Positions 9,524 to 52,100 are shown, counted from the stretch's first letter. The stretch is 52,100 nt of DNA from Candidatus Bathyarchaeota archaeon (GCA_029934005.1 JAOZNA010000001.1:1-52100); one strand, 5' to 3'. Notes: a model not told the origin generated them from the sequence alone. Made by a program: numbers and translations.

Positions 9524-9532
9524 CAAAGGAGG

Positions 9533-16049: not shown

Positions 16050-16051
16050 AA

Positions 16052-16486: not shown

Positions 16487-16614
16487 AGTTGTTATACTCC
16501 TATGTTTTCAATGGATATAACAACATGCATTTAAGATATATTGTGTGGTTAAGAGCAGATGCATTTAGCTTAAATGTTTGCATATGATTAATTTGTTAAG
16601 AACGAGGGTAGTGT

Positions 16615-22460: not shown

Positions 22461-22478
22461 TGCTCATCTCCCCAAATT

Positions 22479-31013: not shown

Positions 31014-31028
31014 TTTTAATCACCCATG

Positions 31029-32110: not shown

Positions 32111-32497
32111 ATGCAAACTCGTTGGATAGGAAAAAACGTAAACTTAGATCGTTTAACCGACTTTATTATAGAATTTTTTCATTTAAGGAACTTTAAGACC
32201 TCCGTTAGTACTGTAGAAGGTAAAATAATGATTTCTGCAGTTAAAATTGAGAAAGGTTCTCCTTTTGTTGTCAAAGTTGTGGTGAACGGTACTCCAGAAG
32301 ACTTTGTGGTTGATTTTAACGCTAAAACAAAATTGGATACCATGAAATTTTTTGTTCCCTTTCTTTCTCTGATCGGATTTGGGTGGTTGTTTCAAAAAGA
32401 GGTCAAAAAGTTAGATGTTTATGGTCCTCTGGAGCGAGATTTTTGGACTTTTTTGGAGATGAGAATAAACGAATTGTCTGGGAAAAAGGATTTTTAG
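32111..32497 (+). CDS. hypothetical protein
   Basis: 128-aa ATG ORF with one internal hydrophobic segment. No family recognised. Confidence 0.4.
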   Translation: MQTRWIGKNVNLDRLTDFIIEFFHLRNFKTSVSTVEGKIMISAVKIEKGSPFVVKVVVNGTPEDFVVDFNAKTKLDTMKFFVPFLSLIGFGWLFQKEVKKLDVYGPLERDFWTFLEMRINELSGKKDF

Positions 32498-32566
32498 TGA
32501 GGTTTGATTGGGAATTATATTCTCTTACTTGTCATAACATTAATATGGGTCTAAGGTTTATTTATT

Positions 32567-37337: not shown

Positions 37338-40097
37338 ATGAAAAAGGAAGCTTTTAATGCGATAGTGATAGCATTAATTATTGTGGTTCTTTGCATATCT
37401 ATTGCTCCAGTGATGGCTTGGACTTATGACGATTGCACTTCAGACGAAAAATATGAGAAGTTTGGGCCTAGGACTGACAACTTGCTGTTTGTTATGTATT
37501 CTGATGCTCCCGGTGAGTATACTGGTTTGGAGGCCGGCGAAATTGACATGCTTGAGTGGGCGATTACAAAGGATCTGGTGGACAAGTGGACTGCGCCTCC
37601 ATGGAACGAAAAGATAAAGGTTGTCTCTTACGGTGCAGAGTTAGGATTTTTCCTCATAGACATTAACTGTTTGCCGACCTATCCAGGAGACTACGAGAGA
37701 GGAGCTCAAGGCGAGGATAACCCAACTAGGGTTCCGTGCATGAGGCATGCGCTTTGGCACGTGATGAACCGAACCCACGTGACTGAAGTAATTTATAAGG
37801 GTCTGGCTGTTCCAATTTATACGCCTGTTCCACCCTCACTCCCAGCATACCAGCATCCAGATATAATTCCAGGCGGCGCAAAGGAGGTTCTAACACACCC
37901 ATACGACTGTGAATATGCTAAACAAATCTTGGACACTTGTGATGAAGACCCAGCTGATGGTATGCCAGACTTTCCAGTCAACCCTGACACGGGCTGGAGG
38001 TTCTGGGACAAGAACGGAAACGGCGTTGAAGATCCAGATGAGTATTTGGAGCTTTGGTTCTACATAAGAATCGACGACCCATTAAGAAATGCTATGGGAG
38101 ACTACTTCGCAGATGAAATTGAAGACTGCCTACAAATCCGCGTAAACAGAAGATACAAGGACGTTTATGGCGCTTGGTTCAGCGTAATGCTAGAACACGA
38201 ATTCAACCTCTACACGGGCGGATGGTCATTAGGCGCAGACCCAGACCATCTAGTGTTATGGCACAGCGACTACTACTGGTATCCAGGCTTCTGCTACAAC
38301 TACGGCGGAATGAACTGCTCAACCTACGACTACTGGGTGGACAAGCTCCTGGAAGCCCCAACCTGGGACGAACTAAAAGAAGCATGCTACCAAGCCCAAT
38401 TAATCTTTAACTCACCATACACGCCAGAAGAAGGCTACACATGCGACTGCCCCGGCGGAGCCATGGGATCTATACCAGTCCTATCATTCCAAGGATTTAA
38501 GGCGTATAGAAGACGCTACACAGGCGGAACAGACGAGCAGCTAGTTTCACCAGACGACGGAGAAAACCAGTATAGAGGACTAACATGGAAGGGAATAGTA
38601 AACGTTCCGGCTATGGGTCCAGACCCAACCGGAATGGGCTACAGCATGCTAAACATGCATCCAGAATGCCACCCAATGGGCGACTGCTCTCACATGACAA
38701 TAAGAGTAGGCTTCAAAGTAGACGAGTTAGAGAAGCCAGGCAACCCAGTTTATGCTGAGTGGCTTTGGGACAACGTAGTTTGGGGATTGTGTCATGAAAG
38801 CCTACTGGCAAGAGACCCATACACGTGGGAGTGGATGCCCTGGCTGGCAAAAGACTATGAACTGTTCACTTGGATAGATCCGGTAACAGGCGAAGAAAAA
38901 GTTGGTGTGAGGCTTCACTTAAGGCCAAACGTTTACTGGAGCGACGGAGAACCAGTAACAGCTGCAGACGTGATGTATTCGCTTGTTGAGATGGACGACG
39001 AACTAATGGCTATTGGATTGCCTCCGCCATGGTGGTATAGCAACGTAGTCTACATCAAAAGCATGTATATAATTGACCCACTAAACATTGAAATTCTGCT
39101 TGATACGAAAAGCGTTTTGGCAGTAGGATGGGTAGGCGGATCTGCAATCTTCCCCAAGCATATATGGAAACACCTAATTGAACTGGCTGCTCAAGGAAAA
39201 ATCGACTTGACTATTCCTGCTCCAGACCCCAACATGATAGGAGCAGGCCCATTCAGGTTTGCAGAATACAACCCAGAAGGCTACTACTGCAAGCTAGTGG
39301 CGAACAAGCCAGGCTTAGAAATAGAGCCAGTATGGCCAACAGGTTTCTGGGATGAAGACTATCCGCCAAAACTAACAAAAAACCCATATGGATACTTCCG
39401 CTACAACCCAGTCTACGTAAACGTTCATGCAGTATCGCCAGAGTACTACTTGACAAGATTTAATCTGCCGCATGACCCAGGAAAACCGCCAACAGTCACA
39501 AGCCTACCAATCGAAATAGAAATAACCCTCAAAAACTTGTGGCTTAACCAGTGCAGCGGAGGCTACCTAATAGTAAACAAGTACGTGTACTACTCTGACC
39601 CATCAGTAAGCACATGGTGCGGACCAGGCGAACTAGAATTGCTACCAGGCTACCCAGAAGACGTAATACTAGAAACCCTACCAGACGGAACAATAATTCC
39701 GCATAAAGAGAACATAATTAAAGAAATTCCGGCTGGCAGCGCGGCATGCGGAAATCCAGCCTGGATCAAAGTCGCAATCCACATCAAAGGACCAGAAATG
39801 CTTGATTCGGAGCATCCTAACCCATGGATTTGCAGATGGATAAACTTCACCTTACCAATAGCAATAACAATCAGAGAAGACACAGCTGGACAATTCTACT
39901 GCGGAAACGATCAGATCCCCGCACCAGATTTCAAAGTAGACCTATACGACGTTTACAGAGCAGCAATGGCGTTCGCAAGCTATCCAGGACACCCAGCTTG
40001 GGATTCGGTACACGATATAACAGGCGACTACCAAGTGGACCTAGCAGACTACTACGCCATCTGCCAAATGTTCGGCTGGGAAGCACCAGCTCCTTAA
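37338..40097 (+). CDS. ABC transporter substrate-binding protein, family 5 (peptide/nickel type), extended, with C-terminal dockerin-like tail
   Basis: N-terminal signal/anchor (AIVIALIIVVLCISIAPVMA). Family-5 SBP-like segments are present (YGAELGFFLIDIN, NVYWSDGEPVTAADV, MIGAGPFRFAEYNPEGYY). At 919 aa it is much longer than the usual 500-600 aa. The last about 56 aa resemble the dockerins of neighbouring genes. Confidence 0.85.
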   Translation: MKKEAFNAIVIALIIVVLCISIAPVMAWTYDDCTSDEKYEKFGPRTDNLLFVMYSDAPGEYTGLEAGEIDMLEWAITKDLVDKWTAPPWNEKIKVVSYGAELGFFLIDINCLPTYPGDYERGAQGEDNPTRVPCMRHALWHVMNRTHVTEVIYKGLAVPIYTPVPPSLPAYQHPDIIPGGAKEVLTHPYDCEYAKQILDTCDEDPADGMPDFPVNPDTGWRFWDKNGNGVEDPDEYLELWFYIRIDDPLRNAMGDYFADEIEDCLQIRVNRRYKDVYGAWFSVMLEHEFNLYTGGWSLGADPDHLVLWHSDYYWYPGFCYNYGGMNCSTYDYWVDKLLEAPTWDELKEACYQAQLIFNSPYTPEEGYTCDCPGGAMGSIPVLSFQGFKAYRRRYTGGTDEQLVSPDDGENQYRGLTWKGIVNVPAMGPDPTGMGYSMLNMHPECHPMGDCSHMTIRVGFKVDELEKPGNPVYAEWLWDNVVWGLCHESLLARDPYTWEWMPWLAKDYELFTWIDPVTGEEKVGVRLHLRPNVYWSDGEPVTAADVMYSLVEMDDELMAIGLPPPWWYSNVVYIKSMYIIDPLNIEILLDTKSVLAVGWVGGSAIFPKHIWKHLIELAAQGKIDLTIPAPDPNMIGAGPFRFAEYNPEGYYCKLVANKPGLEIEPVWPTGFWDEDYPPKLTKNPYGYFRYNPVYVNVHAVSPEYYLTRFNLPHDPGKPPTVTSLPIEIEITLKNLWLNQCSGGYLIVNKYVYYSDPSVSTWCGPGELELLPGYPEDVILETLPDGTIIPHKENIIKEIPAGSAACGNPAWIKVAIHIKGPEMLDSEHPNPWICRWINFTLPIAITIREDTAGQFYCGNDQIPAPDFKVDLYDVYRAAMAFASYPGHPAWDSVHDITGDYQVDLADYYAICQMFGWEAPAP
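39927..40094 (+). other. degenerate dockerin-like module at the C-terminus of the binding protein
   Basis: DFKVDLYDVYRAAMAFASYPGHPAWDSVHDITGDYQVDLADYYAICQMFGWE aligns column by column with GVIDLVDVYVVSMTFGTYEGHPNWNPDADLNQDGQIDLFDIYMVSKNFAKE (44618 gene). The first Ca loop is lost and the second is partly kept. Confidence 0.65.
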
Positions 40098-40121
40098 GTT
40101 TCCAAAGGAAGCCCCTAACAA

Positions 40122-40143
40122 TTCCCCTTTATTTTTGGTTTTT
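40122..40143 (+). terminator. C-tract followed by oligo-T (archaeal intrinsic terminator-like)
   Basis: ttcccctttatttttggttttt lies about 25 nt after the stop of the binding-protein gene. Confidence 0.45.
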
Positions 40144-40245
40144 GAAGGAATAGCTGTTAAATATTGAGTATTTTTCTACTATAATGTTTCATGAGTTTAC
40201 TTGTTTTTAAAGTTTAAAATATTGAGGGGTTTGGATAGAAGATAA

Positions 40246-40262
40246 TTCCAGAATACTTAAAT
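40246..40262 (+). promoter_or_regulatory. shared upstream motif TTCCAGAATACTTA plus A/T box
   Basis: ttccagaatacttaaat ends 51 nt upstream of ATG 40313. Its first 14 nt are identical to 42812..42825, and both are preceded by ggata. Confidence 0.45.
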
Positions 40263-40312
40263 TTAGATTAGGTCATTGTTTATTTTGCTGAAAGGGAGAA
40301 GGAGAAAAGGCT

Positions 40313-42712
40313 ATGAAAAAGTGGTTTATGAAATCGTTAGTGATAGCAGTAGCTGCGATATTCCTTTTGAGTGTTTTTGGCGCAATAAACATTAAGCCAG
40401 CAAAAGCTGCGAGCATTCATATATGGACGGTTCCGTCAACAATAAGCTACACAACTGAAACGATGCCTGCTTCGGGTAGATTTAATGTTTCATTCTGGAT
40501 AGAGACTGACATAGGGATTGGCGGAGTTCAGGTTGTTCCAATATATGAGCATGGTGTTATTAATGTTACAAGATGGTTCGAGCCGACCTGGGACACCAAC
40601 TATATATTCTGGGGACAAGGAACTTCTGCCAGTCCAGTTCCACCAAAAACTGGTTACATTTACATAAATACAACTCATTCAAAGGCTAAACAAGCGGTCA
40701 ACTTGTTCCCGACGCCACCTGCCCAGCCAGCTTTCAAGGGGACGGGCTTGGTATACATTTTGGAGTTCGAGATTGTCGGGGTTCCTGATAAGTATGAAAC
40801 TTTGGATTCGTTGATTTACATTGATACCGCTGAGACCTACGTCATGGACGAGACTGGTGCAAAGATTGATGTTTTCCAGAAGGATGGTGCTTATTACTCG
40901 CTTGAATGGGCTATGCCTCCAGCGCCCTATATGGGTGTTGAACCCACACTCGTAGAATACGACCAGTTCACGGATGCTGTCGGCCAAGTTTTCCAAGTTG
41001 ACCTCTACATTAAGAACTTGGCTGAAGCTTGGCACCTATCTAATGCAAGCTTTAAGCTTGTTTATAACGCGACAATAATCGACGTTATTGGCGACATGGG
41101 TAATGTTAGCATAGCACCAATTTGGGGTACTTACACAGTTACTTTCCACCGAGACCCAGATCCAGCGGTCCTTGATTACATTGAGTTTGTGGTTAAGGAT
41201 CCAACTGAAACTCCTGGTGGTACAACTCCGGCTGACGAGCTGGTTGCGTCAATTAACTTCACTGTACAATTACAGATGCCTGGTCCGCCAGTAGGATATA
41301 TTGAGTCGCCGTTGGACTTCACGGATGTTTCATTCTATGATACGGTTGGGCCGATTACGCCTGATGCTCCAATAAATGGTATAGTGAGAATCTGGAACAG
41401 ACTACCACTACCACTACCATGGTTTGAGGTACAACCAGACCTAGTAGAATTCGGGCCAGCCTATGAAGTTGGAACTACATTTAGCATTGATGTAGTTCTA
41501 ACTGGTCCAGACCCAACTGGCCTACACTACGCATGGTACGCAATCGGATGGCAATTAAGACTACTCTACGACGCAGACCTCCTCGATGTAGTTAATGTAG
41601 AAGAAGGACCATTCCTAAAGGATGGACCATGGAACCTACACGGAACATTCTTCACAAGCAGAGTAGAATCAGACGGTGTGTACGGACCACATGTAGTAAT
41701 GGCTGAAATGCTCTTACCTAACGCCAGCACTGGAGAATGGGACATGACAGTATGGCCCAACGGAACAGGCGTAATAGCAACAATAACATTTGAAATAATA
41801 AAGCAGGACATCAGTTGCGACCTAAGTCATTACTACGAATCCGAGTTTGGTCTCGCACCAGTATTCAATAACTGGATAATCAGCAAGGATGGAACATGGA
41901 TACCAGTAAATGAAACCCAAAATGTAAATGGTACATATAGAATTTATGATTCTCCAATATTGGGAAGACAAATTGACCTTTACGGTGGAGCAAACAACGC
42001 TGGCTATGGTGCATCTGTATTCCCAGAACCATACGGCGGACAAGGACCAAACAACCCAATGGACCTAGTAATTCCACAGTCAGAAGTATACCTCTACGCC
42101 CTAGTAACCTATAACTGCTGGCCAGTACAATCAAAGATTGTAAGCTTCGAAATACAATATCCAAACGGCACAGCATTCGCCAAATTCACAGCAATAACAA
42201 ACGCTTCAGGTGTTGCGTCCATAACGTTCAGAATGCCATGGCCATGTGATAATCCAGAAGACTTGTTCGGAGTATGGAAAGTAATCGCAACTGTTGATAT
42301 AGCAGATGTAGTCGTTAACGACACCATGGAATTCCACTACGACTACATGATACACATATGGAAAGTAACAACAGACAAATACTACTATGCACACGGAGAA
42401 TATGTGCAGATAACAGTTGAATACGGCACGCATGCACAACAATCCTATCCAGGACTATTCACTGTAGTGATTACAGATGACCTTGGTGTTCCAATAGGCT
42501 TAGATGCAAGCTTCATACTAAACATTACTGGAGCAGTATTCTGTCAATACTACAATGATAGCTTCACAGTGTCAATCTTCATACCGAAGTGGGCTTATGC
42601 GGGCTATGCATACGTGCACGTTAACTGCTATGACAAGGAGCCTGCCGAAGGCGGCTTCGCATGGTGTCCAGAATACACGCCTGCACCAGAGATATTCATC
42701 AAACCAGAGTAG
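40313..42712 (+). CDS. secreted multi-cohesin-like protein (family N-module plus two cohesin-like modules plus two Ig-like C-terminal domains)
   Basis: Signal peptide ending AKA/AS. The family N-module spans 40409..40909 (IHIWTVPSTI...FNVSFWIETD..GGVQV...WFEPTW...NLFPTPP...GTGLVYILEFEI). Two further modules carry cohesin-type patterns (VFQVDLYIKNL...FKLVYNATIIDV; FSIDVVL...WQLRLLYDADLLDVVNVEEGPFL...GTGVIATITFEI). No dockerin and no C-terminal anchor. Confidence 0.75.
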   Translation: MKKWFMKSLVIAVAAIFLLSVFGAINIKPAKAASIHIWTVPSTISYTTETMPASGRFNVSFWIETDIGIGGVQVVPIYEHGVINVTRWFEPTWDTNYIFWGQGTSASPVPPKTGYIYINTTHSKAKQAVNLFPTPPAQPAFKGTGLVYILEFEIVGVPDKYETLDSLIYIDTAETYVMDETGAKIDVFQKDGAYYSLEWAMPPAPYMGVEPTLVEYDQFTDAVGQVFQVDLYIKNLAEAWHLSNASFKLVYNATIIDVIGDMGNVSIAPIWGTYTVTFHRDPDPAVLDYIEFVVKDPTETPGGTTPADELVASINFTVQLQMPGPPVGYIESPLDFTDVSFYDTVGPITPDAPINGIVRIWNRLPLPLPWFEVQPDLVEFGPAYEVGTTFSIDVVLTGPDPTGLHYAWYAIGWQLRLLYDADLLDVVNVEEGPFLKDGPWNLHGTFFTSRVESDGVYGPHVVMAEMLLPNASTGEWDMTVWPNGTGVIATITFEIIKQDISCDLSHYYESEFGLAPVFNNWIISKDGTWIPVNETQNVNGTYRIYDSPILGRQIDLYGGANNAGYGASVFPEPYGGQGPNNPMDLVIPQSEVYLYALVTYNCWPVQSKIVSFEIQYPNGTAFAKFTAITNASGVASITFRMPWPCDNPEDLFGVWKVIATVDIADVVVNDTMEFHYDYMIHIWKVTTDKYYYAHGEYVQITVEYGTHAQQSYPGLFTVVITDDLGVPIGLDASFILNITGAVFCQYYNDSFTVSIFIPKWAYAGYAYVHVNCYDKEPAEGGFAWCPEYTPAPEIFIKPE

Positions 42713-42733
42713 GAAAAATAATCACCCCCTTGT

Positions 42734-42749
42734 ATCCCCCTTTTTCTTT
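42734..42749 (+). terminator. C-tract followed by oligo-T
   Basis: atccccctttttcttt lies about 20 nt after the stop at 42712. Confidence 0.45.
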
Positions 42750-42811
42750 GAAAAATTTTCAAAAAAGAGCTTTTTGAGAGTTCGGTGAAGTAAAATACAA
42801 ATGGATATATT

Positions 42812-42828
42812 TTCCAGAATACTTATTA
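42812..42828 (+). promoter_or_regulatory. shared upstream motif TTCCAGAATACTTA plus A/T box
   Basis: ttccagaatacttatta lies about 40 nt upstream of ATG 42868. Confidence 0.45.
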
Positions 42829-42849
42829 GAACATTTTTGAAAATATCTC

Positions 42850-44508
42850 GTGATTGGTGAAGCATTTATGCAAAATCAAAAAAGAATAGAAAAACATCTA
42901 CTAGGCATATTTTCAATAACGTTCATAATTATCGCATTCTTAGCTAACCTTTCCCTTCTAACAATGGAAGAAAACACAGAACCCCTAACACCCCCCCTCA
43001 CCATAACAGCCCAAACAAACAAACAATCCTACCTCCTAAGACAAAAAATCTACATCCAAGGAAACATAACCCTAGACGGCACACCAGTATCAGACGCCTA
43101 CATAATACTCCAAATAAACAACCCACAAGACCAACCAACAACCTTCAGAACAATCCAAATAGGAAACCCAACCCAACACATGCCAATCAAAATACTAGAC
43201 ATCTCCATAACAGACCACGAAAACAACCCACTAGATACAATTCAAATCGGAACAAGCATACGAGTAATAGTAAAAGTCAACAACCCAGAACTAACCTCAC
43301 AAAACATATTCATAACAGCAACAGTCTTCGACGCCAACATGGTTCCAATCCAAACAGGCTTCTTAGAAACAACAATTCTACCAGAACAAACAATATCACC
43401 AAAATTCACAATATATATACCAAAATGGGCAATCTCAGGTAAAGCCCTAATATGCGCAAACGTATACAACAAAGAACCAAAACAAGGCGGAATAGCCTAC
43501 GCAAAAGAAAGAGCAGAATACTTCTACATAAGCAAAATCCAAAAAGGATACCTAGAACTCCCAGAAATCCAATTCCAAGACATACAAAACACGCCCGGAA
43601 AATACCAAACCTACATAACCCTACCACCAGACCCAAAAGCAGGAGAATACACCGCATACATCACAGGACAAGTAGACCCAATAACAATAAACCAAGAAAC
43701 AATCACATTCCAAGTGCAACAATCATCAGGCTACCCACCACAAGCATCATTCGCATACTGGCCAACCCCCTCCTACGAAAACATGACCCTAACCTTCGAC
43801 GCCTCATCATCAACAGCAGAAGGATTCAACGACACAATAATAAAGTATGAATGGGATTTCGGAGACGGAACACCAAAAATAATCAAAGAAGGAAACTACA
43901 CAAACCCACCAGACCCAACCATAACCCACGCATACACAACACCAGGCAACTACACAATAACCCTAAACGTAACAGACAACGAAGGACTATGGAGCACAAC
44001 CACAAAACCAATAGAAATACTGCCAGAATTCGGCCCAACAGCAGACTTCGAATGGTCACCATACCAACCATGGGTAAACCAAACAATAACCTTCAACGCC
44101 TCAAAAACCACAGTTGGCTGGTGCGCAAAAACAGCAAGATTCAGCCCAATAGCTAACTACGAATGGGATTTCGGAGACGGAACATCACCAATAACAACAA
44201 CAAACCCAATAATAACCTACAACTACACCCAACCAGGCAACTACTCAGTAACCCTAACAGTAACCGACGAAGATGGAAGAATAGACTCAGTAACTTACAC
44301 GATTGAAGTCTTAAATGTAACAACCAAATACTGCGACATAGACGGCGACGGAATGATTGACCTAGTAGACGTATATACAGTAGCAATGCATTTTGCCGCA
44401 GAAGAAGGAGACCCCAACTACGATCCAAGATGCGACATAGACGGCGACGGAGTAATTGACCTATTCGACTACTACACAGTATGCATGCACTACGGAGAAG
44501 ACCCCTAA
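42850..44508 (+). CDS. secreted PKD-repeat protein with C-terminal dockerin
   Basis: The likely start is ATG 42868, with GGTGA 8 nt upstream. It has a signal/anchor helix. An N-terminal two-domain unit is shared with the C-terminus of the 40313 gene (IPKWAISGKALICANVYNKEPKQGG). Two PKD repeats (YEWDFGDGT...H.Y..PGNY.[IV]TL.VTD) are followed by a duplicated dockerin. Confidence 0.85.
   Translation: MIGEAFMQNQKRIEKHLLGIFSITFIIIAFLANLSLLTMEENTEPLTPPLTITAQTNKQSYLLRQKIYIQGNITLDGTPVSDAYIILQINNPQDQPTTFRTIQIGNPTQHMPIKILDISITDHENNPLDTIQIGTSIRVIVKVNNPELTSQNIFITATVFDANMVPIQTGFLETTILPEQTISPKFTIYIPKWAISGKALICANVYNKEPKQGGIAYAKERAEYFYISKIQKGYLELPEIQFQDIQNTPGKYQTYITLPPDPKAGEYTAYITGQVDPITINQETITFQVQQSSGYPPQASFAYWPTPSYENMTLTFDASSSTAEGFNDTIIKYEWDFGDGTPKIIKEGNYTNPPDPTITHAYTTPGNYTITLNVTDNEGLWSTTTKPIEILPEFGPTADFEWSPYQPWVNQTITFNASKTTVGWCAKTARFSPIANYEWDFGDGTSPITTTNPIITYNYTQPGNYSVTLTVTDEDGRIDSVTYTIEVLNVTTKYCDIDGDGMIDLVDVYTVAMHFAAEEGDPNYDPRCDIDGDGVIDLFDYYTVCMHYGEDP
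43741..44310 (+). other. two tandem PKD domains (approximate limits)
   Basis: The motifs WDFGDGT, THAYTTPGNYTITLNVTDNEG and YNYTQPGNYSVTLTVTDEDG occur twice, about 95 aa apart. Confidence 0.85.
44326..44505 (+). other. dockerin module (two EF-hand-like Ca loops)
   Basis: DIDGDGMIDLVDVYTVAMHF...DPRCDIDGDGVIDLFDYYTVCMHYG. Both 12-residue loops fit D-x-[DN]-x-D-G-x-[IV]-D-x-x-D. Confidence 0.9.
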
Positions 44509-44555
44509 ACTCTCATCTACATTTTTACAAATAGTAAACTAAACATAGAAAAAGA

Positions 44556-44571
44556 TTCCAAAACATTTAAG
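44556..44571 (+). promoter_or_regulatory. related upstream motif TTCCAAAACATTTAAG
   Basis: Ends 47 nt upstream of ATG 44618. It has the same TTCCA...TTTA spacing class as the other three copies. Confidence 0.35.
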
Positions 44572-44617
44572 ACTTCTCTCACACACACAAATGATGAGAA
44601 ACCAGAGGGAAACATAA

Positions 44618-46465
44618 ATGAGAAAAACCATAACTTTTATATTAATAATTTTCCTCTCAATAGCAACACTCAGCATTCTAACAATTAACCCATCCCAAGC
44701 CCAAGAAGGAACAAGAATCTACACAATCCCCTCAACAATCATCAGATACTACAACGACACCTACGTAGGTTATCGCTTTAATGTTAGTTTCTGGATTGAA
44801 ACAGACCAGGAAGTCGGCGGAGTCCAAATCACTACCATCTTCAAACACAACATCATAAACGTAACCCAATGGTGGGAACCAAAATGGGACCCCAACTACA
44901 TATTCTACGGAGAAACAACCTCAGCCCTACCATACCCACCAAACCCAGGCTACACCCAGATAAACTCAACCCACTCCAGATCAAAAATAGCAGTAAACCT
45001 ATTCCCACCACCACCCACCCAAACACCATTCACAGGAACAGGCCTAATAGCCATACTAGAATTCGAAGTTAAAGTAATACCTCCAGAAAATGAAACCTAC
45101 AAATCCCCAATCTCAATAGACAACCCAGGCACATATATAATGCTTGCCGACGGGACTCAACTCAAAGAATTCACAAAAGAAAACGGATATTATGAAATAC
45201 ATGGTCCACCACCTCCACCAACTGGAACAAGAATTTTCATTGATCCACCAGAAATAATCGATCCAACAATGACTCCATCATCAATCTTTGACATAAACAT
45301 AACAATAGACGACTTCTTAGACATGAAAGTATGCATATTCAATCTGAGTTACGACCCCAACGTAATTGGCTATGTAACATTTGAAATCTTTCGAATCAAC
45401 GGAGAATTTCCAACATCGAAAATAATAGCTGACGACGAGGCAGGCTACGTTTGGGTAAAACTAAACTATTCAACACCAGTCACAACCTACGATCCACTAG
45501 CAATAATCCAAATAACATTCCACGTCGAAACATACGGATCAACCCCCCTCGACCTCCACGACACAAACATAACAGATCCAACTGGAACCCCAATAGAACA
45601 TGACGTCTACGACGGCTTCTTCGCCACACTAATACGCGACGTAGCAGTAACCGACATAATTCCATCAAGAACATGGACCTATGAAGGAACACCAATAAAC
45701 ATCACAGTAACCGTCAAAAACAAAGGAAATGTAAGCGAAACCTTCGACTTAACTCTATACTACGACTCCAACATAATAGAAACCAAAACAGTAACAGACT
45801 TACCTTCAGGTGAGGAAAGAAATGTAACGTTCACATGGGATACCACAGGAATTCCGGAAGGAAACTACACAATATCCGCTGAAGCCTCATATGTCCCCTA
45901 CGAATTCGACCCAACCGACAACTCCTTGACAGATGGCACAATATGGATAATGGAAAGAATTCACGATGTAGCAATAATAGACGTAGTAGTACCACGTTCA
46001 TGGGTTTACCAAGGCTGGCAAATCAACATCACAGTAACAGCCAAAAACCAAGGAAACTTCACAGAAACCTTTGATGTCACCCTATACTTCAACCAAACCC
46101 AAATAAAAACATGGAACATAATCGACTTGCCAGCTGGAGAAAAAATAGAACTGCAAATAACCTTAAACACTTCCCAATTCCAACCCTGCAGCAACTTCTC
46201 AATATGGGCGGAAGCCTCCCAAGTCCCCTACGAATACAACCTAACAAACAACATATTTTACGATGGTTACCTAAAAATCCGCCTCTACGGTGACATAAAC
46301 GGCGACGGAGTGATCGACTTAGTAGACGTATACGTAGTCTCCATGACATTCGGAACTTACGAAGGACATCCAAACTGGAATCCAGATGCAGACCTAAACC
46401 AAGATGGTCAAATAGACCTATTCGACATTTACATGGTATCTAAAAACTTCGCAAAAGAATGTTAA
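44618..46465 (+). CDS. secreted cohesin-like / CARDB-repeat protein with C-terminal dockerin (adaptor-like)
   Basis: Signal peptide (...INPSQA/QE), family N-module 44711..45199, and a PPPPP linker. A cohesin-like module follows (IFDINITIDDFLDMKVCIFNLSYDPNVIGYV...LAIIQITFHV). Then come two CARDB-type repeats and a duplicated dockerin. Confidence 0.85.
   Translation: MRKTITFILIIFLSIATLSILTINPSQAQEGTRIYTIPSTIIRYYNDTYVGYRFNVSFWIETDQEVGGVQITTIFKHNIINVTQWWEPKWDPNYIFYGETTSALPYPPNPGYTQINSTHSRSKIAVNLFPPPPTQTPFTGTGLIAILEFEVKVIPPENETYKSPISIDNPGTYIMLADGTQLKEFTKENGYYEIHGPPPPPTGTRIFIDPPEIIDPTMTPSSIFDINITIDDFLDMKVCIFNLSYDPNVIGYVTFEIFRINGEFPTSKIIADDEAGYVWVKLNYSTPVTTYDPLAIIQITFHVETYGSTPLDLHDTNITDPTGTPIEHDVYDGFFATLIRDVAVTDIIPSRTWTYEGTPINITVTVKNKGNVSETFDLTLYYDSNIIETKTVTDLPSGEERNVTFTWDTTGIPEGNYTISAEASYVPYEFDPTDNSLTDGTIWIMERIHDVAIIDVVVPRSWVYQGWQINITVTAKNQGNFTETFDVTLYFNQTQIKTWNIIDLPAGEKIELQITLNTSQFQPCSNFSIWAEASQVPYEYNLTNNIFYDGYLKIRLYGDINGDGVIDLVDVYVVSMTFGTYEGHPNWNPDADLNQDGQIDLFDIYMVSKNFAKEC
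44765..45072 (+). repeat. near-identical nucleotide block shared by three paralogs (copy 1)
   Basis: The string gtaggttatcgctttaatgtt...gaaacagaccaggaagtcggcggagtccaaatcactaccatcttcaaacacaacatcataaacgtaacccaatggtgggaacc recurs almost base for base at 46728 and 50374. The tail cccactccagatcaaaaatagcagtaaacctattcccaccaccaccc...ccatactagaattcgaagttaa is identical to copy 3. Confidence 0.85.
45635..46280 (+). other. two tandem CARDB-like domains (approximate limits)
   Basis: RDVAVTDIIPSRTWTYEGTPINITVTVKNKGNVSETFDLTLYYD...LPSGEERNVTFTWDT and HDVAIIDVVVPRSWVYQGWQINITVTAKNQGNFTETFDVTLYFN...LPAGEKIELQITLNT. Confidence 0.8.
46283..46462 (+). other. dockerin module (two EF-hand-like Ca loops)
   Basis: LYGDINGDGVIDLVDVYVVSMTFGTYEGHPNWNPDADLNQDGQIDLFDIYMVSKNF. 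Confidence 0.9.
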
Positions 46466-46474
46466 AATTCCTAA

Positions 46475-46489
46475 CTCCCTCCATTTTTT
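46475..46489 (+). terminator. C-tract followed by oligo-T
   Basis: ctccctccatttttt lies 10 nt after the stop at 46465. Confidence 0.45.
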
Positions 46490-46555
46490 ATAGCACCAAA
46501 AGCTTATAACTAAGATAAAACTCAAATATGCAGATACTACAACGGAGGAAAAAAC

Positions 46556-48259
46556 TTGAATAGAAAAAAGGCAATATGCATCTCATTAATGCTCGCTTTA
46601 TTCCTCACATCAACAATAGCAATTTTAGCAACAGCCAAACAACCAAACCAGGTGGAACCACAACAAGCCACAACAAGAATATGGATACAACCATCCCAAA
46701 TAAAATGTTATTCAGGAGATGTCTACGTAGGTTATCGCTTTAACGTTACTTTTTGGATTGAAACAGACCAGGAAGTCGGCGGAGTCCAAATCACTACCAT
46801 CTTCAAACACAACATCATAAACGTAACCCAATGGTGGGAACCCACATGGAACTCCAGCTACATATTCTACGGAAAAACAACATCAGCCCCACCATTCCCA
46901 CCAAACCCAGGCTACTATCAAATAAACGCAACCCACTCCAGATCAAAAATAGCAGTAAACCTATTCCCACCACCACCCGCTCAAACACCATTCACAGGGA
47001 CGGGCTTAATAGCCATATTACAATTTGAAATTGTGAGTATGCCTAACGAAACGGTTACAAAACTGTCTTCACCACTTAGTATTAACAATGATGGTACATA
47101 TCTGTTTCTGGCTGATGGCAATCCGCTGAGAGAATTTACGAAGGAAGATGGCTCTTACGAAATCGAATTTACAACAATACCACCAATGTCCTTGGATGTG
47201 AATCCTCAAAAAATAGAGTTCACTCCCTACTCTTCAGCAATAGGGCAAAAATTCGACATCAGCCTAAGTGCAGTAGGAGTCGGAACATTCCATGATTTAC
47301 ACAAGATAACATTCCTATTCACATACAACAGCACTTTACTATCAACAAACGAAACCAACATACACATCAATGCCTTCTGGGGAACATCCAGTAAAAGTGT
47401 CACCGACGGAACAATAAACATAACCATTTCGAATCCAACCTCAACTCCAGAAGGAACAATTCTAATAGCAAACATAACATTTGAAATAACATATCAAAAT
47501 GAAGTCCCACCAGGCTCTCTAAAAGACTATAGCTCATCCTCCCTTACATTCCAAAACTACCACGCTTACAACAGTACGGGTGGAGAAATAAACATAGCAG
47601 ATCCTGGAGCATGCACGGTAATAGTATATCCAAGGTTCACTGGAACAGTCCAAATAGGAATTTCCGATCCCATGCCAATAAATGTAACAACAGGACAAAT
47701 TATCGAAGGAATCAACTACGTTGACATCGCATATATCAAGAAACAAGGAGCATACGACGCTGACCACTACGTGATAAATATAACAACATCAGAAATATAC
47801 AATGTAACAGAAATTAACATCAAATTGAAATACGACCCAGAAAGGACCAATTATCGTTATCATGCAAAATTCCACGGCAATCTCTTCACAAAGTATGGCA
47901 TTGACTACAACATTACCGATGATGAAAAAGGAAATGTTTCAATCACCATCCTAGCAAAGCGTGTGCCAATCTTCAGCGGAACAATAATTCAATTAGCATT
48001 CTACGTACCAGAAGGTTCAGATTGTTATGACATCGTCAAAAGTGTTGGACAATGCACCACACTAATAAACATAACAGAGGTTTCAATGAAAGACGGAAAA
48101 GGAAACGTCATACCAACATCAATACAAACCCCAAGCACCACAATCCTAATGACTCCCGAATTCCCATCATCAATATCAATTCTAATAATGCTAACAATAT
48201 TAACTGGTACCATAATAATAGCCAAAACCAGAAATCAAAGAAATAGGAAAAAGCAATAA
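46556..48259 (+). CDS. surface protein with cohesin-like modules and a PEF-CTERM anchor signal
   Basis: TTG start with GGAGGA upstream, and a signal peptide. The family N-module spans 46673..47170. Two further cohesin-like modules are present (IGQKFDISLSAVGVGTFHDLHKITFLFTYNSTLLS...GTILIANITFEI; EINIKLKYDPERT...GTIIQLAFYV). The C-terminus is PEF + TM + basic tail. Many N-x-S/T sequons. Confidence 0.85.
   Translation: MNRKKAICISLMLALFLTSTIAILATAKQPNQVEPQQATTRIWIQPSQIKCYSGDVYVGYRFNVTFWIETDQEVGGVQITTIFKHNIINVTQWWEPTWNSSYIFYGKTTSAPPFPPNPGYYQINATHSRSKIAVNLFPPPPAQTPFTGTGLIAILQFEIVSMPNETVTKLSSPLSINNDGTYLFLADGNPLREFTKEDGSYEIEFTTIPPMSLDVNPQKIEFTPYSSAIGQKFDISLSAVGVGTFHDLHKITFLFTYNSTLLSTNETNIHINAFWGTSSKSVTDGTINITISNPTSTPEGTILIANITFEITYQNEVPPGSLKDYSSSSLTFQNYHAYNSTGGEINIADPGACTVIVYPRFTGTVQIGISDPMPINVTTGQIIEGINYVDIAYIKKQGAYDADHYVINITTSEIYNVTEINIKLKYDPERTNYRYHAKFHGNLFTKYGIDYNITDDEKGNVSITILAKRVPIFSGTIIQLAFYVPEGSDCYDIVKSVGQCTTLINITEVSMKDGKGNVIPTSIQTPSTTILMTPEFPSSISILIMLTILTGTIIIAKTRNQRNRKKQ
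46728..47032 (+). repeat. near-identical nucleotide block (copy 2)
   Basis: Same block as 44765..45072. The central roughly 115 nt are identical by eye and the flanks of the gene are diverged. Confidence 0.85.
48155..48256 (+). other. PEF-CTERM-type sorting signal
   Basis: PEFPSSISILIMLTILTGTIIIAKTRNQRNRKKQ at the extreme C-terminus: tripeptide, about 20 hydrophobic residues, then an Arg/Lys cluster. Confidence 0.8.
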
Positions 48260-48260
48260 C

Positions 48261-48274
48261 TTCCCCTCTTTTTT
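48261..48274 (+). terminator. C-tract followed by oligo-T
   Basis: ttcccctctttttt lies directly after the stop at 48259. The same ttcccctctttt string follows the next paralog. Confidence 0.5.
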
Positions 48275-48426
48275 AAAACAACAGAACCTTATTCAAATTA
48301 TGGAACCTCACTCTCCATTTAACGGATAAACCTGACTCCAATCCATCAAAATTTCCACAGTCAACAAACAAAGCCTTAAAATAGAAAAACTTTTATAATT
48401 TCATTAAAAACTCAGGTGACCAAATC

Positions 48427-50058
48427 ATGAAAAAATCGTTAATTCTAATCCTCACAACCTCAATTCTAATCATCAGCACATTCACCACAATAACTCCATC
48501 AACAACATTAAAATCTCCAATAAAACCAGCTGCAGCCAACGGCACAAAAATCTGGACAACACCCTCAAACATCACATTATATACAAACGAAACCATTGCA
48601 GGTCAAAAATTCAATGTTAGCTTCTGGCTAACAACCGATAAGGAAGTTGGCGGGGTTCAAATAACAACCTTTTTCAAACATGATGTTATCAATATAACAA
48701 GATGGTTTGAACCCTCATGGAACTCCAGCTACCTATTCTACAATAAAACAACGTCTGCTCTTCCACTTCCACCAAACCCAGGATACCGCCAAGTAAACTC
48801 AACCCATTCTAAATCAAAAATAGCAGTAAGCTTATTCCCACCACCAGATCAAGAGCCATTCACAGGAACAGGTCTAATAGCCATACTAGAATTCGAAGTT
48901 AATGCAATTCCAGAAGAAGGAAACAATCTAACCTCACTCATTTACATAAATAATTCGGAGACTTACTTAATGTTGGCAGACGGCAGCCAATTTCGGAATT
49001 TCACTAAAATGAATGGATACTATAAACTTTGCTGGAATTCACCACCTCAATCCATTGCAATAGAAGTCTATCCCAACCTAATCAAGTTTACACCTTACGA
49101 ATCAGCTGTCGGACAGAAATTCAATGTCACTGTAAGACTCAAAGGGGTTATTTCGGCATATGATCTACAAAGTGTTAATTTCTCACTAATTTATGATAAT
49201 GCTTTATTATCAACGAAACAATCAGATGTTAAAATCTGTGAACCATGGCAAAACTCTAAAGTAGAGACTGCTGAAAACTCAGTAAACGTAACGGTTTCAA
49301 ATCCTACTTCAACACCAAATGGGACAGTTCTACTTGCAAATGTTACATTCACCGTAAAATACCAAGATTCTGCTCCTCCACGTCATCTAAGCGATTATGA
49401 TTCATCAAAATTAAATTTTGAAGAATCTTACGCATACAGTAACGTCGTAGGAAGCTTAAACTTAACCTCCGTTGCCGGAGAAGTTAGAATTTATGCACGT
49501 TACAACGGTACAGTTAAATTGAGTCTCTCTGAGCCAATACCACTAGACACAATAATTCACTATTTAGACTCACCAAGTTTTCTAATCAACGTTAGCATAA
49601 GCGAAGTATTCGACATTAAAGAACTAAATTTCACCGTGAAATTTGACCCAAACATAGTTACTACACCTAACCAAACTTATTACCAGATCATCCTTCCAGA
49701 AGACTCGCTCTTTAACATCTACTCCGGACTTGCATTTGACTCATCCAGTGCTATCGAAAAGGGATTAATACACCTCAGAGTAACCCCACTTCCAGGTGCA
49801 GAATTTCCACACGCGTCAGGACTTTTATTCCAAATAAACTTCACATCTCTCAACAAGGGTACAACATATGTAAATGTAACTGATTTAACGCTTAGGGACA
49901 CTAAAGGAAACTCCGTTCCAATAGAGGGTTCAAGTTCTCAAGTTGAAATAATTCCAGAGTTCCCAAACATTTCAATTATAGCAGTGTTAATTACATTGTC
50001 AAGTATGGTCGCAATAATGACGAAAACAAAGAATAAAATGAAAGACAAAATTAAGTAA
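48427..50058 (+). CDS. surface protein with cohesin-like modules and a PEF-CTERM anchor signal (paralog of 46556)
   Basis: AGGTGA lies 8 nt upstream of the ATG, and there is a signal peptide. A more diverged copy of the family N-module spans 48544..49035. Cohesin-like modules follow (VGQKFNVTVRLKGVISAYDLQSVNFSLIYDNALLS...GTVLLANVTFTV; ELNFTVKFDPNIV...SGLLFQINFT). The C-terminus is a PEF-CTERM signal. Confidence 0.85.
   Translation: MKKSLILILTTSILIISTFTTITPSTTLKSPIKPAAANGTKIWTTPSNITLYTNETIAGQKFNVSFWLTTDKEVGGVQITTFFKHDVINITRWFEPSWNSSYLFYNKTTSALPLPPNPGYRQVNSTHSKSKIAVSLFPPPDQEPFTGTGLIAILEFEVNAIPEEGNNLTSLIYINNSETYLMLADGSQFRNFTKMNGYYKLCWNSPPQSIAIEVYPNLIKFTPYESAVGQKFNVTVRLKGVISAYDLQSVNFSLIYDNALLSTKQSDVKICEPWQNSKVETAENSVNVTVSNPTSTPNGTVLLANVTFTVKYQDSAPPRHLSDYDSSKLNFEESYAYSNVVGSLNLTSVAGEVRIYARYNGTVKLSLSEPIPLDTIIHYLDSPSFLINVSISEVFDIKELNFTVKFDPNIVTTPNQTYYQIILPEDSLFNIYSGLAFDSSSAIEKGLIHLRVTPLPGAEFPHASGLLFQINFTSLNKGTTYVNVTDLTLRDTKGNSVPIEGSSSQVEIIPEFPNISIIAVLITLSSMVAIMTKTKNKMKDKIK
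49954..50055 (+). other. PEF-CTERM-type sorting signal
   Basis: PEFPNISIIAVLITLSSMVAIMTKTKNKMKDKIK at the extreme C-terminus. Confidence 0.8.
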
Positions 50059-50072
50059 TTTTCCCCTCTTTT
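50059..50072 (+). terminator. C-tract followed by oligo-T
   Basis: ttttcccctctttt lies directly after the stop at 50058. Confidence 0.5.
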
Positions 50073-50192
50073 ATTGAGTTAAACTACATTTTCAGAATAT
50101 AAATCCAGAAAAATATTCTAGAGTAAAACTATACGAACAGTAAATTTCATATATAATATCAATTGTAACTATTGGTTTAGGTGAAAATTGGA

Positions 50193-52100
50193 ATGAGAAA
50201 AACAGCGATTTCAATATTTATCTTAATCCTATTGCTAATAATGAATACAGAATACGCGTTTCAAATTCAAGATGCCAAGATAAATAAATCTATAAGACCA
50301 ATGTCTCCAACAACAATTTGGGTGCAACCTTCAAATATCACGTTATTCAGTAATGAAGCATATGTGGGCTACCGCTTTAATGTTACTTTTTGGATTGAAA
50401 CAGACCAAGAAGTCGGCGGAGTCCAAATCAACACCATCTTCAAACACACCATCATAAACGTAACCCAATGGTGGGAACCCTCATGGAACTCCAGCTACAT
50501 ATTCCACGGAGAAATGACTTCCGCCTTGCCAACTCCACCAAACCCTGGCTACGCCCAGATAAACTCAACCCACTCCAGATCAAAAATAGCAGTAAACCTA
50601 TTCCCACCACCACCCACCCAAACACCATTCACAGGAACAGGCCTAATAGCCATACTAGAATTCGAAGTTAAGTCGCTTCCAAACGAAACTACTCCATTAT
50701 TGACTTCTTCTATTCACATAAACAACACACAAACATACATAATGCTGGCTGATGGTTCTCAGATGATAGAATTCCCAAAGACAGATGGATGGTACGAAAT
50801 TCACCATTATGTTCCTCCCCCATCCGAAGCTTGGCTTGAAGCCTCTCCAAGTCAACTTGAAATGTCCGAACCAAGACCATTCAATGTATCTATTCTAATA
50901 AAGAACGTAAGCGAGACGAACGAACTCATTGGCGTTCAATTCATGCTAAAATTTAACATGAGCAACCTAGAAGTTTTAAACATAATCGAAGGAGACTTTC
51001 TGAAACAATTTGCAAACCATGGTACACTTGTAAGCTACCGCGTAGACGAGGTATGGGAAGCCGTGGTATACAGTGAAATGATACTACCAAACGATACTGG
51101 ACAATGGGATCTACCAGTCTTTCCTAACGGCGAAGGAGAAATGGCTAAAATAACATTCCTACCAAAATACCACGAACAAGTATCCTTTAATCTCACAATT
51201 GAACCTGTCTTTGGCAATTTCTTCATGGACGTAAACGGCACATGGCTACCCTACTCCGAACCCAGAAATTGCTCATACACCTACACTCCACTGCCTTTAC
51301 CATTGCTAAAAACTGAACCAAGCCCGTGTGTAGCATCCAATGTTGGAGAAATCTTCGAACTAAACATCACAATAAGCAACCTTTCAGCCGAATGGAATCT
51401 GGTCTATTTCGAGCTTACACTTGACTTTAACGGATCCTATCTAAAAGCCTTGGATGTTATTGAAGGACCTTTCATGAGCCAGTTTGGAACCACAGAATTC
51501 AACTATGAAATCTTTAATAATTCAGTAACTCTAAACCTAACATTGCTTCCACCATACACCTTCCCCTACGGTGACGGAACATTAGTTCAAATAATTTTCA
51601 ATGCAACATCAAGACCTCCGGCAACATGCGACCTCGAAATAAACAACATTATTCTAAAAGATCCTCTGGACTACGATGTACTATATGATGTGATTCATGG
51701 ACGCTATACCATGGAAGAGCACATTATACATGAAATTGTTTGGAGTGGAATGACATTCCATGTTGAAACTTTAAGCAATGCTTCAGTGAGTAGCGTAATC
51801 TTCGATCAGCTGCATAGGCTTATACACTTCAATGTTACTGGATGGAGTGGAGTCTTAGGCTTCGTTAACGTGACTATTCCAAAGTCTCTTCTGTATGCTG
51901 ATCTTGAAGACTGGCTTGTAATAGTTGGAGGCGTCGAGGTAGTTCCAGTCGTAACTGAGCTTGATGACAGTGTTTTAATTTCATTTATGTGGAATTTCAG
52001 CAGCACTGTACCAGTTTATATTGTTGGTACTTCAGCGGCAACTCTAACTTACACTTTGATTATTGACTCCACTGTTGGCGGAACAACCCACCCATCACCC
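50193..52100 (+). CDS. secreted multi-cohesin-like protein, 3'-truncated by the window end
   Basis: Not in the ORF track because it has no stop. Hand translation from ATG 50193 (AGGTGA 8 nt upstream) stays open for all 636 codons to 52100. It has a signal peptide and the family N-module at 50310..50801. At least two classic cohesin-like modules follow (ELIGVQFMLKFNMSNLEVLNIIEGDFL...GEGEMAKITF; EIFELNITISNLSAEWNLVYFELTLDFNGSYLKALDVIEGPFM...GDGTLVQIIFNA). Confidence 0.8.
   Translation, partial: MRKTAISIFILILLLIMNTEYAFQIQDAKINKSIRPMSPTTIWVQPSNITLFSNEAYVGYRFNVTFWIETDQEVGGVQINTIFKHTIINVTQWWEPSWNSSYIFHGEMTSALPTPPNPGYAQINSTHSRSKIAVNLFPPPPTQTPFTGTGLIAILEFEVKSLPNETTPLLTSSIHINNTQTYIMLADGSQMIEFPKTDGWYEIHHYVPPPSEAWLEASPSQLEMSEPRPFNVSILIKNVSETNELIGVQFMLKFNMSNLEVLNIIEGDFLKQFANHGTLVSYRVDEVWEAVVYSEMILPNDTGQWDLPVFPNGEGEMAKITFLPKYHEQVSFNLTIEPVFGNFFMDVNGTWLPYSEPRNCSYTYTPLPLPLLKTEPSPCVASNVGEIFELNITISNLSAEWNLVYFELTLDFNGSYLKALDVIEGPFMSQFGTTEFNYEIFNNSVTLNLTLLPPYTFPYGDGTLVQIIFNATSRPPATCDLEINNIILKDPLDYDVLYDVIHGRYTMEEHIIHEIVWSGMTFHVETLSNASVSSVIFDQLHRLIHFNVTGWSGVLGFVNVTIPKSLLYADLEDWLVIVGGVEVVPVVTELDDSVLISFMWNFSSTVPVYIVGTSAATLTYTLIIDSTVGGTTHPSP
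50374..50671 (+). repeat. near-identical nucleotide block (copy 3)
   Basis: Same block. Its 3' part of roughly 100 nt is identical to copy 1. Confidence 0.85.

Follow-up and report, generated by a model that had tools for sequence, protein, structure and literature searches.

We report a cohesin-dockerin gene set that adjoins the genes of an Opp-type ATP-binding cassette (ABC) importer in a 52,100-nucleotide stretch of Candidatus Bathyarchaeota archaeon DNA (GCA_029934005.1 JAOZNA010000001.1:1-52100; hereafter the window), and whose gene order recurs in >70 metagenomic and metagenome-assembled genome contigs. Our favoured interpretation, to which we give a probability of roughly 0.6, is that the set encodes a conserved archaeal surface assembly dedicated to the importer, which would retain and concentrate the importer's receptor. 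Region 37338-52100 consists of seven successive + strand open reading frames (ORFs): g37338, encoding a solute-binding protein (SBP) with a C-terminal dockerin; the tri-cohesin protein g40313; the dockerin-tagged PKD protein g42850; the adaptor g44618, which has both cohesins and a dockerin; and the tri-cohesin proteins g46556, g48427 and g50193, the last of which is cut at the window end. At the N-terminus of each of the seven products, a short charged run precedes a hydrophobic segment of signal or anchor type. An earlier inspection of the DNA without database searches (the sequence-only reading) had described seven consecutive + strand genes of secreted type, and had listed anchored cohesin carriers, an adaptor, an unanchored multi-cohesin protein, dockerin-tagged PKD cargo and a dockerin-tagged receptor coupled to an ABC importer. 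The ORFs, their N-terminal segments and every part on that list are present, and the coupling is supported by conserved synteny.

Orthologous clusters with proteins that are 35-55% identical were found in L004 (Bathyarchaeia DRTY-6), L006, L010 and L011, where the orthologues of g40313 share 38-48% identity; orthologues of g42850 are 43-51% identical, and in related loci the cohesin cluster is preceded by orthologous ATPase genes. When metagenomes were scanned with the conserved C-terminal region of g40313-type proteins, 70 further loci were obtained. These contigs were annotated with locally built hidden Markov models (HMMs), and the counts that follow are over informative loci. The recurrent order begins with OppB-OppC-(OppD-OppF), the SBP with its dockerin, and a protein of three cohesins and a conserved C-terminal domain; it continues with a cohesin-free dockerin protein, a cohesin and dockerin adaptor, an N-terminal-type cohesin with a PEF-type tail, and a multi-cohesin protein. 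Opp genes lie upstream in 22/22 loci, and the SBP-dockerin gene is directly upstream of the tri-cohesin gene in 25/30. The cohesin-free dockerin protein is the next gene in 44/54 loci, the adaptor follows downstream in 37/39, and a PEF-tailed cohesin is present in 24/32. Among the five loci without an SBP-dockerin gene directly upstream, L016 and L017 have it ahead of OppBCDF, L014 shows the same layout but is cut at OppB, and L048 has an unclassified 2.6-kb dockerin ORF in the SBP position. Because this order recurs across loci, the importer and the cohesin-dockerin set are, as judged from gene content and synteny, a conserved unit.

The products of g40313, g44618, g46556, g48427 and g50193 open with a common module of ~165 amino acids, as the sequence-only reading had noted, with pairwise identities of 47-75%. 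At the Pfam Cohesin PF00963 gathering cutoff of 24.1 bits, one module each was recognized in g40313 (31.1 bits), g48427 (24.8 bits) and g50193 (30.3 bits). Module 2 of g44618 (18.5 bits), module 3 of g40313 (17.7 bits) and module 2 of g50193 (13.2 bits) scored below it, and PF00963 did not match the five N-terminal modules or the third modules of g46556 and g48427. In profile searches against PDB sequences, the second-position modules matched cohesins only (E 1.2e-8), and so did the N-terminal module, with the type II cohesin dyad of Acetivibrio cellulolyticus ScaB (3l8q) as its best match (E 1.5e-5). Using hhalign, the N-terminal module was linked to the Pfam-supported second-position modules with a probability of 97.9%, and the third modules of g46556 and g48427 to the cohesin profile A2 with a probability of 96.6%. 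AlphaFold2 (AF2) models were made of the N-terminal module and of the SBP, and the cohesin fold prediction thus covers the former. Built from a 26-sequence alignment, this model is all-beta and confident (predicted local distance difference test, pLDDT, 96.9; predicted template modelling score, pTM, 0.90), and its top 50 Foldseek matches in the PDB are cohesins throughout (E down to 3.8e-9; template modelling scores 0.5-0.73), the Archaeoglobus fulgidus cohesin 2xdh being the second best (E 9e-9); the model thus agrees with the nine-stranded beta jelly roll that defines the cohesin fold. Because the PDB profile matches, the hhalign link and the predicted fold all lead to cohesins, the shared N-terminal module is, on profile and model evidence, a cohesin although Pfam misses it; we refer to it as the N-type cohesin.

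The sequence-only reading had put the number of cohesin-like modules at about 13 and had described the cohesin pattern for the modules that follow the shared one. The later modules are indeed cohesins, and the N-terminal module itself has to be counted with them; the local HMM map gives 14 in the five proteins, of which g44618 has two and the other four proteins have three each. As the local HMMs were built from these very sequences, the map serves to delimit the modules, and the evidence that they score and fold as cohesins comes from the independent agreement of Pfam, profiles, hhalign and the N-type AF2/Foldseek comparison.

An exhaustive HMMER search with the N-type profile recovered 965 cluster representatives at E <= 1e-3, of which 114 remained at E <= 1e-30. 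The 180 N-type cohesin homologues differ in their C-termini: in ~40 a P[ED][FYIL] motif, a transmembrane (TM) helix and a basic tail are present, many of these proteins being minimal (signal, one cohesin and tail); ~28 have another TM helix with a basic tail, and at least 18 end in a dockerin. Homologue records with names belong to Bathyarchaeia, Bathyarchaeota, Nitrososphaerota and one 'Archaeoglobales archaeon B35_G2' scaffold, which has 90.5% nucleotide identity to window positions 37681-41046. We also observed a subfamily of ~276 amino acids (P0025-P0036) in which an N-terminal TM anchor and a CarboxypepD_reg-like domain accompany a single N-type cohesin; these proteins have no C-terminal tail, so that the cohesin is anchored from the opposite end. 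A protein with an N-type cohesin and a dockerin is found in L003 (DASPTR010000118.1), which is labelled Candidatus Acidoferrum, a bacterium; its OppF gene is ~70% identical to that of the window at the nucleotide level, and L003 is probably a mis-binned archaeal contig.

The C-terminal 254 amino acids of g40313 (41948-42709) are the best-conserved part of that protein across loci, with a mean column identity of 69% and conserved Cys and Trp motifs (RMPWPC and GGFAWCPE). A related motif can be seen in the N-terminal part of g42850 (residues ~187-220). The region matches no known family: a profile search against the PDB gave nothing significant, and Pfam gave only faint hints of MG2, Big_1 and MG4.

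Dockerins terminate three of the proteins. Those of g42850 (24.0 bits) and g44618 (31.4 bits) exceed the curated Pfam Dockerin_1 PF00404 cutoff of 22.9 bits, and both Ca-binding loop and helix segments are canonical in g42850 (DIDGDGMIDLVD / DIDGDGVIDLFD) and in g44618 (DINGDGVIDLVD / DLNQDGQIDLFD), in keeping with the duplicated loops noticed earlier; the g44618 dockerin matches that of Pseudobacteroides cellulosolvens (PDB 2y3n_B) at E 5e-12. The tail of the SBP, which had been described as a degenerate dockerin, is a true dockerin homologue. With the dockerins of g42850 and g44618 it shares 42-48% identity (BLASTP 1.5e-9 and 2.9e-9, respectively), and its score is 52.4 bits (E 2e-16) when compared with a dockerin HMM for which non-SBP dockerins alone were used. 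Two helices are predicted within it in the AF2 model of the SBP, at residues 869-877 and 902-912. Its second Ca loop is near-canonical (DITGDYQVDLAD) and keeps the D1/x3/D5/D9/D12 pattern; the first (PAPDFKVDLYD) is degenerate, with neither D1 nor N/D3. Since the same first-loop asymmetry recurs in 77/92 dockerin-ending members of the SBP family, it marks a conserved subtype of dockerin and not decay.

The dockerins of the window, L006, L010 and L011 form three orthologous classes with distinct endings: ...FGW in the SBP type, ...HYGEDP in the PKD-protein type and ...NYGKGC in the adaptor type. In L004 (6232-16674), all four dockerins, which belong to the SBP, two cargo proteins and the adaptor, share the locus-specific signature VDMADISI.., and this sharing suggests that the dockerins of a genome evolve in concert. 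Such homogenisation would be expected if dockerins co-evolve with cohesins inside a genome.

The SBP has a strong match to Pfam SBP_bac_5 (108 bits; cutoff 32.4), and its AF2 model (pLDDT 87.8) retrieves YntA, NikZ and OppA with Foldseek (E down to 3.6e-13). Sequence and fold therefore agree, and OppBCDF-type genes lie nearby. The best structural matches in the PDB, which include TM1223 and a chitin SBP, are receptors for Ni-histidine, peptides, chitin or manno-oligosaccharides, and opines, and these are about equally good; on such modelled likeness 'peptide' is a family label only, and specificity for peptides is putative. The segments of the family-5 fold do not follow their canonical N-to-C order in g37338. 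Residues 38-308 align with Pfam SBP_bac_5 positions 139-358, residues 488-554 with positions 33-128 of NCBIfam SBP models, and residues 523-645 with residues 65-177 of PDB 6i3g, while positions 457-556 of the SBP family HMM align with residues 47-160 of the canonical-order SBP of L004. Because these four independent sequence comparisons agree, the SBP (residues 38-645) and its whole family appear to be circularly permuted with respect to canonical SBP_bac_5; the partial Foldseek coverage, ~340 of ~500 target residues, fits such a permutation.

Among 120 homologues of the SBP, 92 end in a dockerin, which precomputed Pfam annotation flags in only ~7. Of the remaining 28, 20 have a C-terminal linker that leads into a TM helix with a basic tail, and eight are truncated or otherwise different; the 20 are mostly the most distant homologues (~600-720 amino acids), and the TM-anchored proteins are colinear with the window SBP over ~650 residues. 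As dockerin and TM anchor alternate at the C-terminus of one family, the dockerin probably substitutes for the membrane anchor in retaining the SBP on the cell.

Anchors of another kind terminate g46556 and g48427, where (T/I)PEF (PEF at residues 534 and 510, respectively) is followed by ~20 hydrophobic residues and a K/R-rich tail, so that motif, TM helix and basic cluster make up a tripartite signal (TPEFPSSISILIMLTILTGTIIIAKTRNQRNRKKQ and IPEFPNISIIAVLITLSSMVAIMTKTKNKMKDKIK). The orthologues of g50193 (P0008, P0009 and those in L006, L010 and L011) also end in PEF-type tails. Potential N-glycosylation sites (N-x-S/T sequons) occur at 2.0-4.4 per 100 amino acids in the six cohesin/dockerin proteins, which is 5-10x denser than in cytosolic proteins (0.41 per 100 amino acids in eight from the window, pooled).

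Taken together, these features would fit the following arrangement. All seven proteins would be secreted. g46556, g48427 and probably g50193, with three cohesins each, would be held on the cell by the C-terminal PEF, TM and basic signal, which could act as a membrane anchor or as a substrate for an archaeosortase-like enzyme. The adaptor g44618, with two cohesins, two CARDB domains and a dockerin, would plug into an anchored cohesin and extend the scaffold, and g40313, whose C-terminal beta-rich region is highly conserved, may act as a free tri-cohesin protein. Through their dockerins, the SBP and the PKD protein g42850 would dock onto cohesins. The data themselves show what the domains are and how they are predicted to fold, that gene order is conserved and that dockerin and TM anchor alternate; we infer which cohesin binds which dockerin, how PEF tails are processed, what the ligand is and what part the unanchored g40313 plays. 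In the SBP, the dockerin would stand in place of the C-terminal membrane anchor carried by its relatives. The otherwise soluble OppBCDF receptor would thus be kept at the cell surface at high local density, beside immunoglobulin-like PKD and CARDB modules that may bind source material.

Several observations weigh against this interpretation. Two Ca ligands are absent from the first loop of the SBP dockerin, and the SBP tail on its own gives no Pfam Dockerin_1 match; this dockerin could be non-functional or could bind something else. The SBP also has few sequons (0.33 per 100 amino acids), and g40313 has neither an anchor nor a dockerin that would account for its place in the proposed assembly. 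In L008 (a closed Bathyarchaeota genome) and L009, SBP-dockerin genes lie far from any cohesin or Opp gene; clustering with cohesins is thus not obligatory, and we rejected the notion that the two always occur together. The anchors are a further point. The sequence-only reading had assigned PEF-CTERM anchors to g46556 and g48427, and the PEF, TM and basic architecture stands. All tails examined scored below the curated PEF-CTERM model: relative to the NCBIfam TIGR03024 cutoff of 23 bits, the g48427 tail scores 11.1 bits and the g46556 tail has no match, and ten homologue tails scanned against NCBIfam reach 10.5-22.2 bits, with matches to Loki-CTERM and PEFG-CTERM also sub-threshold. No archaeosortase gene was found among the large ORFs of the 52 kb window, all of which were scanned.

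A more specific version of the proposal pictures a 'receptor antenna', in which anchored multivalent scaffolds concentrate the permuted Opp-type SBP above the permease, PKD, CARDB and the conserved beta domain capture source material, and an insertion in OppC possibly offers a docking platform, the whole being widespread in Bathyarchaeia-like archaea and largely missed by domain models. We regard this version as tentative and clearly less likely than not. It takes the OppC insertion to be ~200-400 amino acids across loci, co-varying. In the translated window sequence, the insertion comprises ~420 amino acids located outside the membrane between TM helix 1 and the permease core. OppC has 510-605 amino acids wherever a g37338-type SBP is present (11/11 related loci) and ~375 in loci with the canonical-order, L004-type SBP. 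The insertion matched neither the local cohesin/dockerin HMMs nor Pfam, and a cohesin or dockerin docking site within it was rejected for this reason.

The proteins could alternatively form a general adhesion or matrix system for cell-cell, cell-particle or biofilm attachment, in which case the importer would be a co-regulated neighbour and the dockerin on the SBP incidental. PKD and CARDB are typical adhesin modules, family scans detected no catalytic domains among the seven proteins, orphan SBP-dockerin genes exist apart from cohesin clusters, and roles in cell-cell contact have been proposed for anaerobic methanotrophic (ANME) archaea (PMC5244752, PMC9012536). We nevertheless consider adhesion unlikely as the primary role, since the linkage to Opp genes (22/22) and the position of the SBP-dockerin gene before the tri-cohesin gene (25/30) are tighter than for a functionally unlinked neighbour, and since the replacement of a TM anchor by a dockerin within the SBP family points to tethering of the receptor.

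Cellulosomal bacteria scatter their dockerin-bearing enzyme genes over the genome, and the orphan SBP-dockerin genes of L008 and L009 resemble that arrangement. A cellulosome-like degradative complex could accordingly have its dockerin-bearing hydrolases, glycosidases or proteases, encoded elsewhere and leave uptake of the products to the importer. The combination of scaffoldin, adaptor and anchor is what such a complex would show, NosD or beta-helix domains occur together with dockerins in some relatives of the SBP, and family-5 SBPs of thermophiles can bind oligosaccharides, as the TM1223 and chitin SBP matches in the PDB recall. Pfam and NCBIfam scans of the seven proteins gave no enzyme domain, and the sequence-only reading, which had seen no glycoside hydrolase or protease motif and had picked out two PKD and two CARDB domains as the cargo-like parts, was right on both counts (PKD in g42850, PKD_4 5e-31; CARDB in g44618, 1e-18; Pfam). 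Neither a glycoside hydrolase nor a carbohydrate-binding module was detected, whether in the seven proteins of the window or among the genes with Pfam annotation in L004, L006, L010 and L011. The cellulosome was therefore rejected as the primary explanation, no annotated copy of the locus having an enzyme or carbohydrate-binding module, and we judge a degradative complex improbable.

Still less probable is a purely structural role, with the cohesin folds as immunoglobulin-like spacers of an S-layer or sheath family and the dockerin tails as Ca-binding stabilisers that pair with nothing in particular: most cohesin modules are indeed too divergent for Pfam and the predicted glycosylation is heavy, like that of S-layer proteins, but cohesins and dockerins co-occur and co-cluster in >70 loci, the dockerins form conserved orthologous classes and are homogenised in L004 as expected for co-evolving partners, and binding between archaeal cohesins and dockerins has been shown in work that PMC9012536 cites. 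Chance or an annotation artefact was rejected because the architecture is conserved in >70 loci.

The features of the locus are summarized in Table 1.

Table 1. Coordinates of the importer genes and the cohesin-dockerin gene set within the window (aa, amino acids).
Feature	Position	Strand	Content
OppF-like ABC ATPase	30006-31013	-	ABC_tran + oligo_HPY
OppD-like ABC ATPase	31029-32027	-	ABC_tran + oligo_HPY
Two small ORFs between OppC and OppD	32111-32497 and 32567-33277	+	
Zinc-ribbon + multi-TM protein	33257-34030	-	
OppC-like permease	34051-36120	-	689 aa; BPD_transp_1, OppC_N and BPD_transp_1_N found over the OppB/OppC pair
OppB-like permease	36127-37203	-	Pfam permease domains; divergent from SBP gene
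g37338, SBP	37338..40097	+	Family-5 (cluster C) solute-binding protein, 919 aa; signal peptide, SBP core in apparently permuted order, beta-rich spacer (~residues 650-860), C-terminal dockerin
SBP dockerin	39921..40085 (residues 862-916)	+	Located by BLASTP + custom dockerin HMM
g40313	40313..42712	+	Secreted tri-cohesin protein, neither anchor nor dockerin; N-type cohesin 40415-40909; cohesins 40922-41395, 41414-41947; C-terminal beta-rich region 41948-42709
g42850	42850..44508	+	Dockerin-tagged PKD protein; N-terminal beta region; PKD x2 43735-44310; dockerin 44314-44505
g44618, adaptor	44618..46465	+	N-type cohesin 44711-45205; cohesin 45227-45631; CARDB x2 ~45671-46255; dockerin 46271-46462
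g46556	46556..48259	+	Anchored tri-cohesin protein; N-type cohesin 46673-47170; cohesins 47183-47629, 47633-48148; PEF + TM + basic tail 48155-48256
g48427	48427..50058	+	Anchored tri-cohesin protein; N-type cohesin 48544-49035; cohesins 49051-49494, 49498-49953; PEF + TM + basic tail 49954-50055
g50193	50193..52100	+	Tri-cohesin protein, 3' part beyond window end; N-type cohesin 50310-50807; cohesins 50826-51287, 51297-51713; further beta-rich region

The OppB and OppC genes are transcribed divergently from the adjoining g37338, and the OppF-like and OppD-like ATPases (30006..32027) match ABC_tran and oligo_HPY with E 1e-29 to 5e-33. Three small genes of unknown function between OppC and OppD (32111-34030) split the transporter genes. 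An exact 14-mer, TTCCAGAATACTTA, is found at 40246-40259 (+) before g40313 and again at 42812-42825 before g42850, 25-55 nt upstream of either gene, and versions with 3 mismatches occur at 37273 and 44556, at similar distances upstream of g37338 and g44618. It is possibly a shared promoter or operator element; at 3 mismatches, 12 occurrences were found against 9.3 expected, which is not above chance.

Elsewhere in the window, GatD/GatE (8192-11443), ELP3 and a HerA-Mre11-Rad50 cluster (13466-19913) are archaeal markers, by which the window is archaeal. The upstream ORF of the HerA-Mre11-Rad50 cluster (13466-14545) has no Pfam match. A second ABC system, with PhoU_div, an ATPase with TOBE and a fused permease, lies at 20705-24137, and in the 42-50 kb part of the window the GC skew is strongly negative and the AT skew positive.

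Almost all that is understood about cohesin-dockerin pairs concerns their part in holding together bacterial machines for polysaccharide degradation, and ever since they were discovered in Archaeoglobus their role in archaea has been a matter of debate or conjecture. For a large group of uncultured archaea of sediments and hot springs, this locus offers a concrete answer, namely that the modules may fasten accessory binding modules and the ABC importer's receptor onto the cell surface. Importer, tagged receptor, free tri-cohesin protein, adaptor and anchors make up a conserved and compact gene set. Because current Pfam models miss most of its parts, among them the N-type cohesin family (~965 cluster representatives) and the SBP-type dockerin, archaeal cohesin-dockerin networks are probably under-counted. 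As tools for protein assembly, cohesin-dockerin pairs that are thermostable and orthogonal would be of use as well.

Related domain combinations have been reported in ANME archaea by Chadwick et al. (2022, PMC9012536), namely proteins resembling scaffoldins that combine as many as five cohesins with a dockerin, and NikA/OppA and TroA binding proteins that bear a dockerin, and a cell-surface role has been proposed for these dockerin/cohesin proteins (PMC9012536; Timmers et al., 2017, PMC5244752). The suggestion in the sequence-only reading that such a combination was undescribed was consequently overstated. These papers are domain inventories and do not include a conserved locus, a link between cohesins and PEF-type tails or a dedicated partnership with a single Opp operon; the lineage studied here is distinct from ANME, and its N-type cohesin and SBP-type dockerin are mostly invisible to Pfam. 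In the searchable literature we did not find descriptions of a conserved Opp-cohesin-dockerin locus, of PEF-type anchoring of cohesins, of the N-type cohesin family, of the asymmetric SBP-type dockerin or of the prevalence of these in Bathyarchaeia-like lineages. The non-cellulosomal cohesin of A. fulgidus (2xdh) has the same fold as the N-type module. Binding of archaeal cohesins to dockerins has been verified experimentally, according to work cited in PMC9012536, and a review cited there is quoted as listing no multi-cohesin scaffoldins in the archaea known at the time; the window locus differs from A. fulgidus in having five multi-cohesin proteins in a row.

Closer to the receptor itself are the C-terminally TM-anchored family-5 SBPs of archaea, which belong to the same SBP family and face the same need to retain a receptor without an outer membrane. 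Where the window SBP has its beta spacer and dockerin, these proteins have a coiled-coil-like linker followed by a TM helix and a basic tail. The 'bindosome' of Sulfolobus is a surface assembly of sugar-binding proteins that is formed via the Bas system, with type IV pilin-like signal peptides and BasEF, and is not known to use cohesins or dockerins. It resembles the proposed assembly as an organised array of extracellular ABC receptors on an archaeal surface, with no homology implied.

The architecture resembles that of bacterial cellulosomes, which also combine multi-cohesin scaffoldins, an adaptor scaffoldin with cohesin and dockerin, a cell-anchored scaffoldin and dockerin-tagged cargo. 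The type II pairs of Acetivibrio cellulolyticus and Pseudobacteroides cellulosolvens are especially close relatives, the nearest solved cohesins by sequence being 3l8q, 1qzn, 1tyj and 2y3n_A and the nearest solved dockerin 2y3n_B. The window locus differs from cellulosomes in lacking a glycoside hydrolase, carbohydrate-binding module or X-module, in having an ABC receptor and PKD/CARDB proteins as cargo, in using a PEF, TM and basic tail as anchor instead of SLH domains or a sortase LPXTG signal, and in its archaeal host. If the receptor antenna is real, it would represent a transport-dedicated use of the cellulosome principle.

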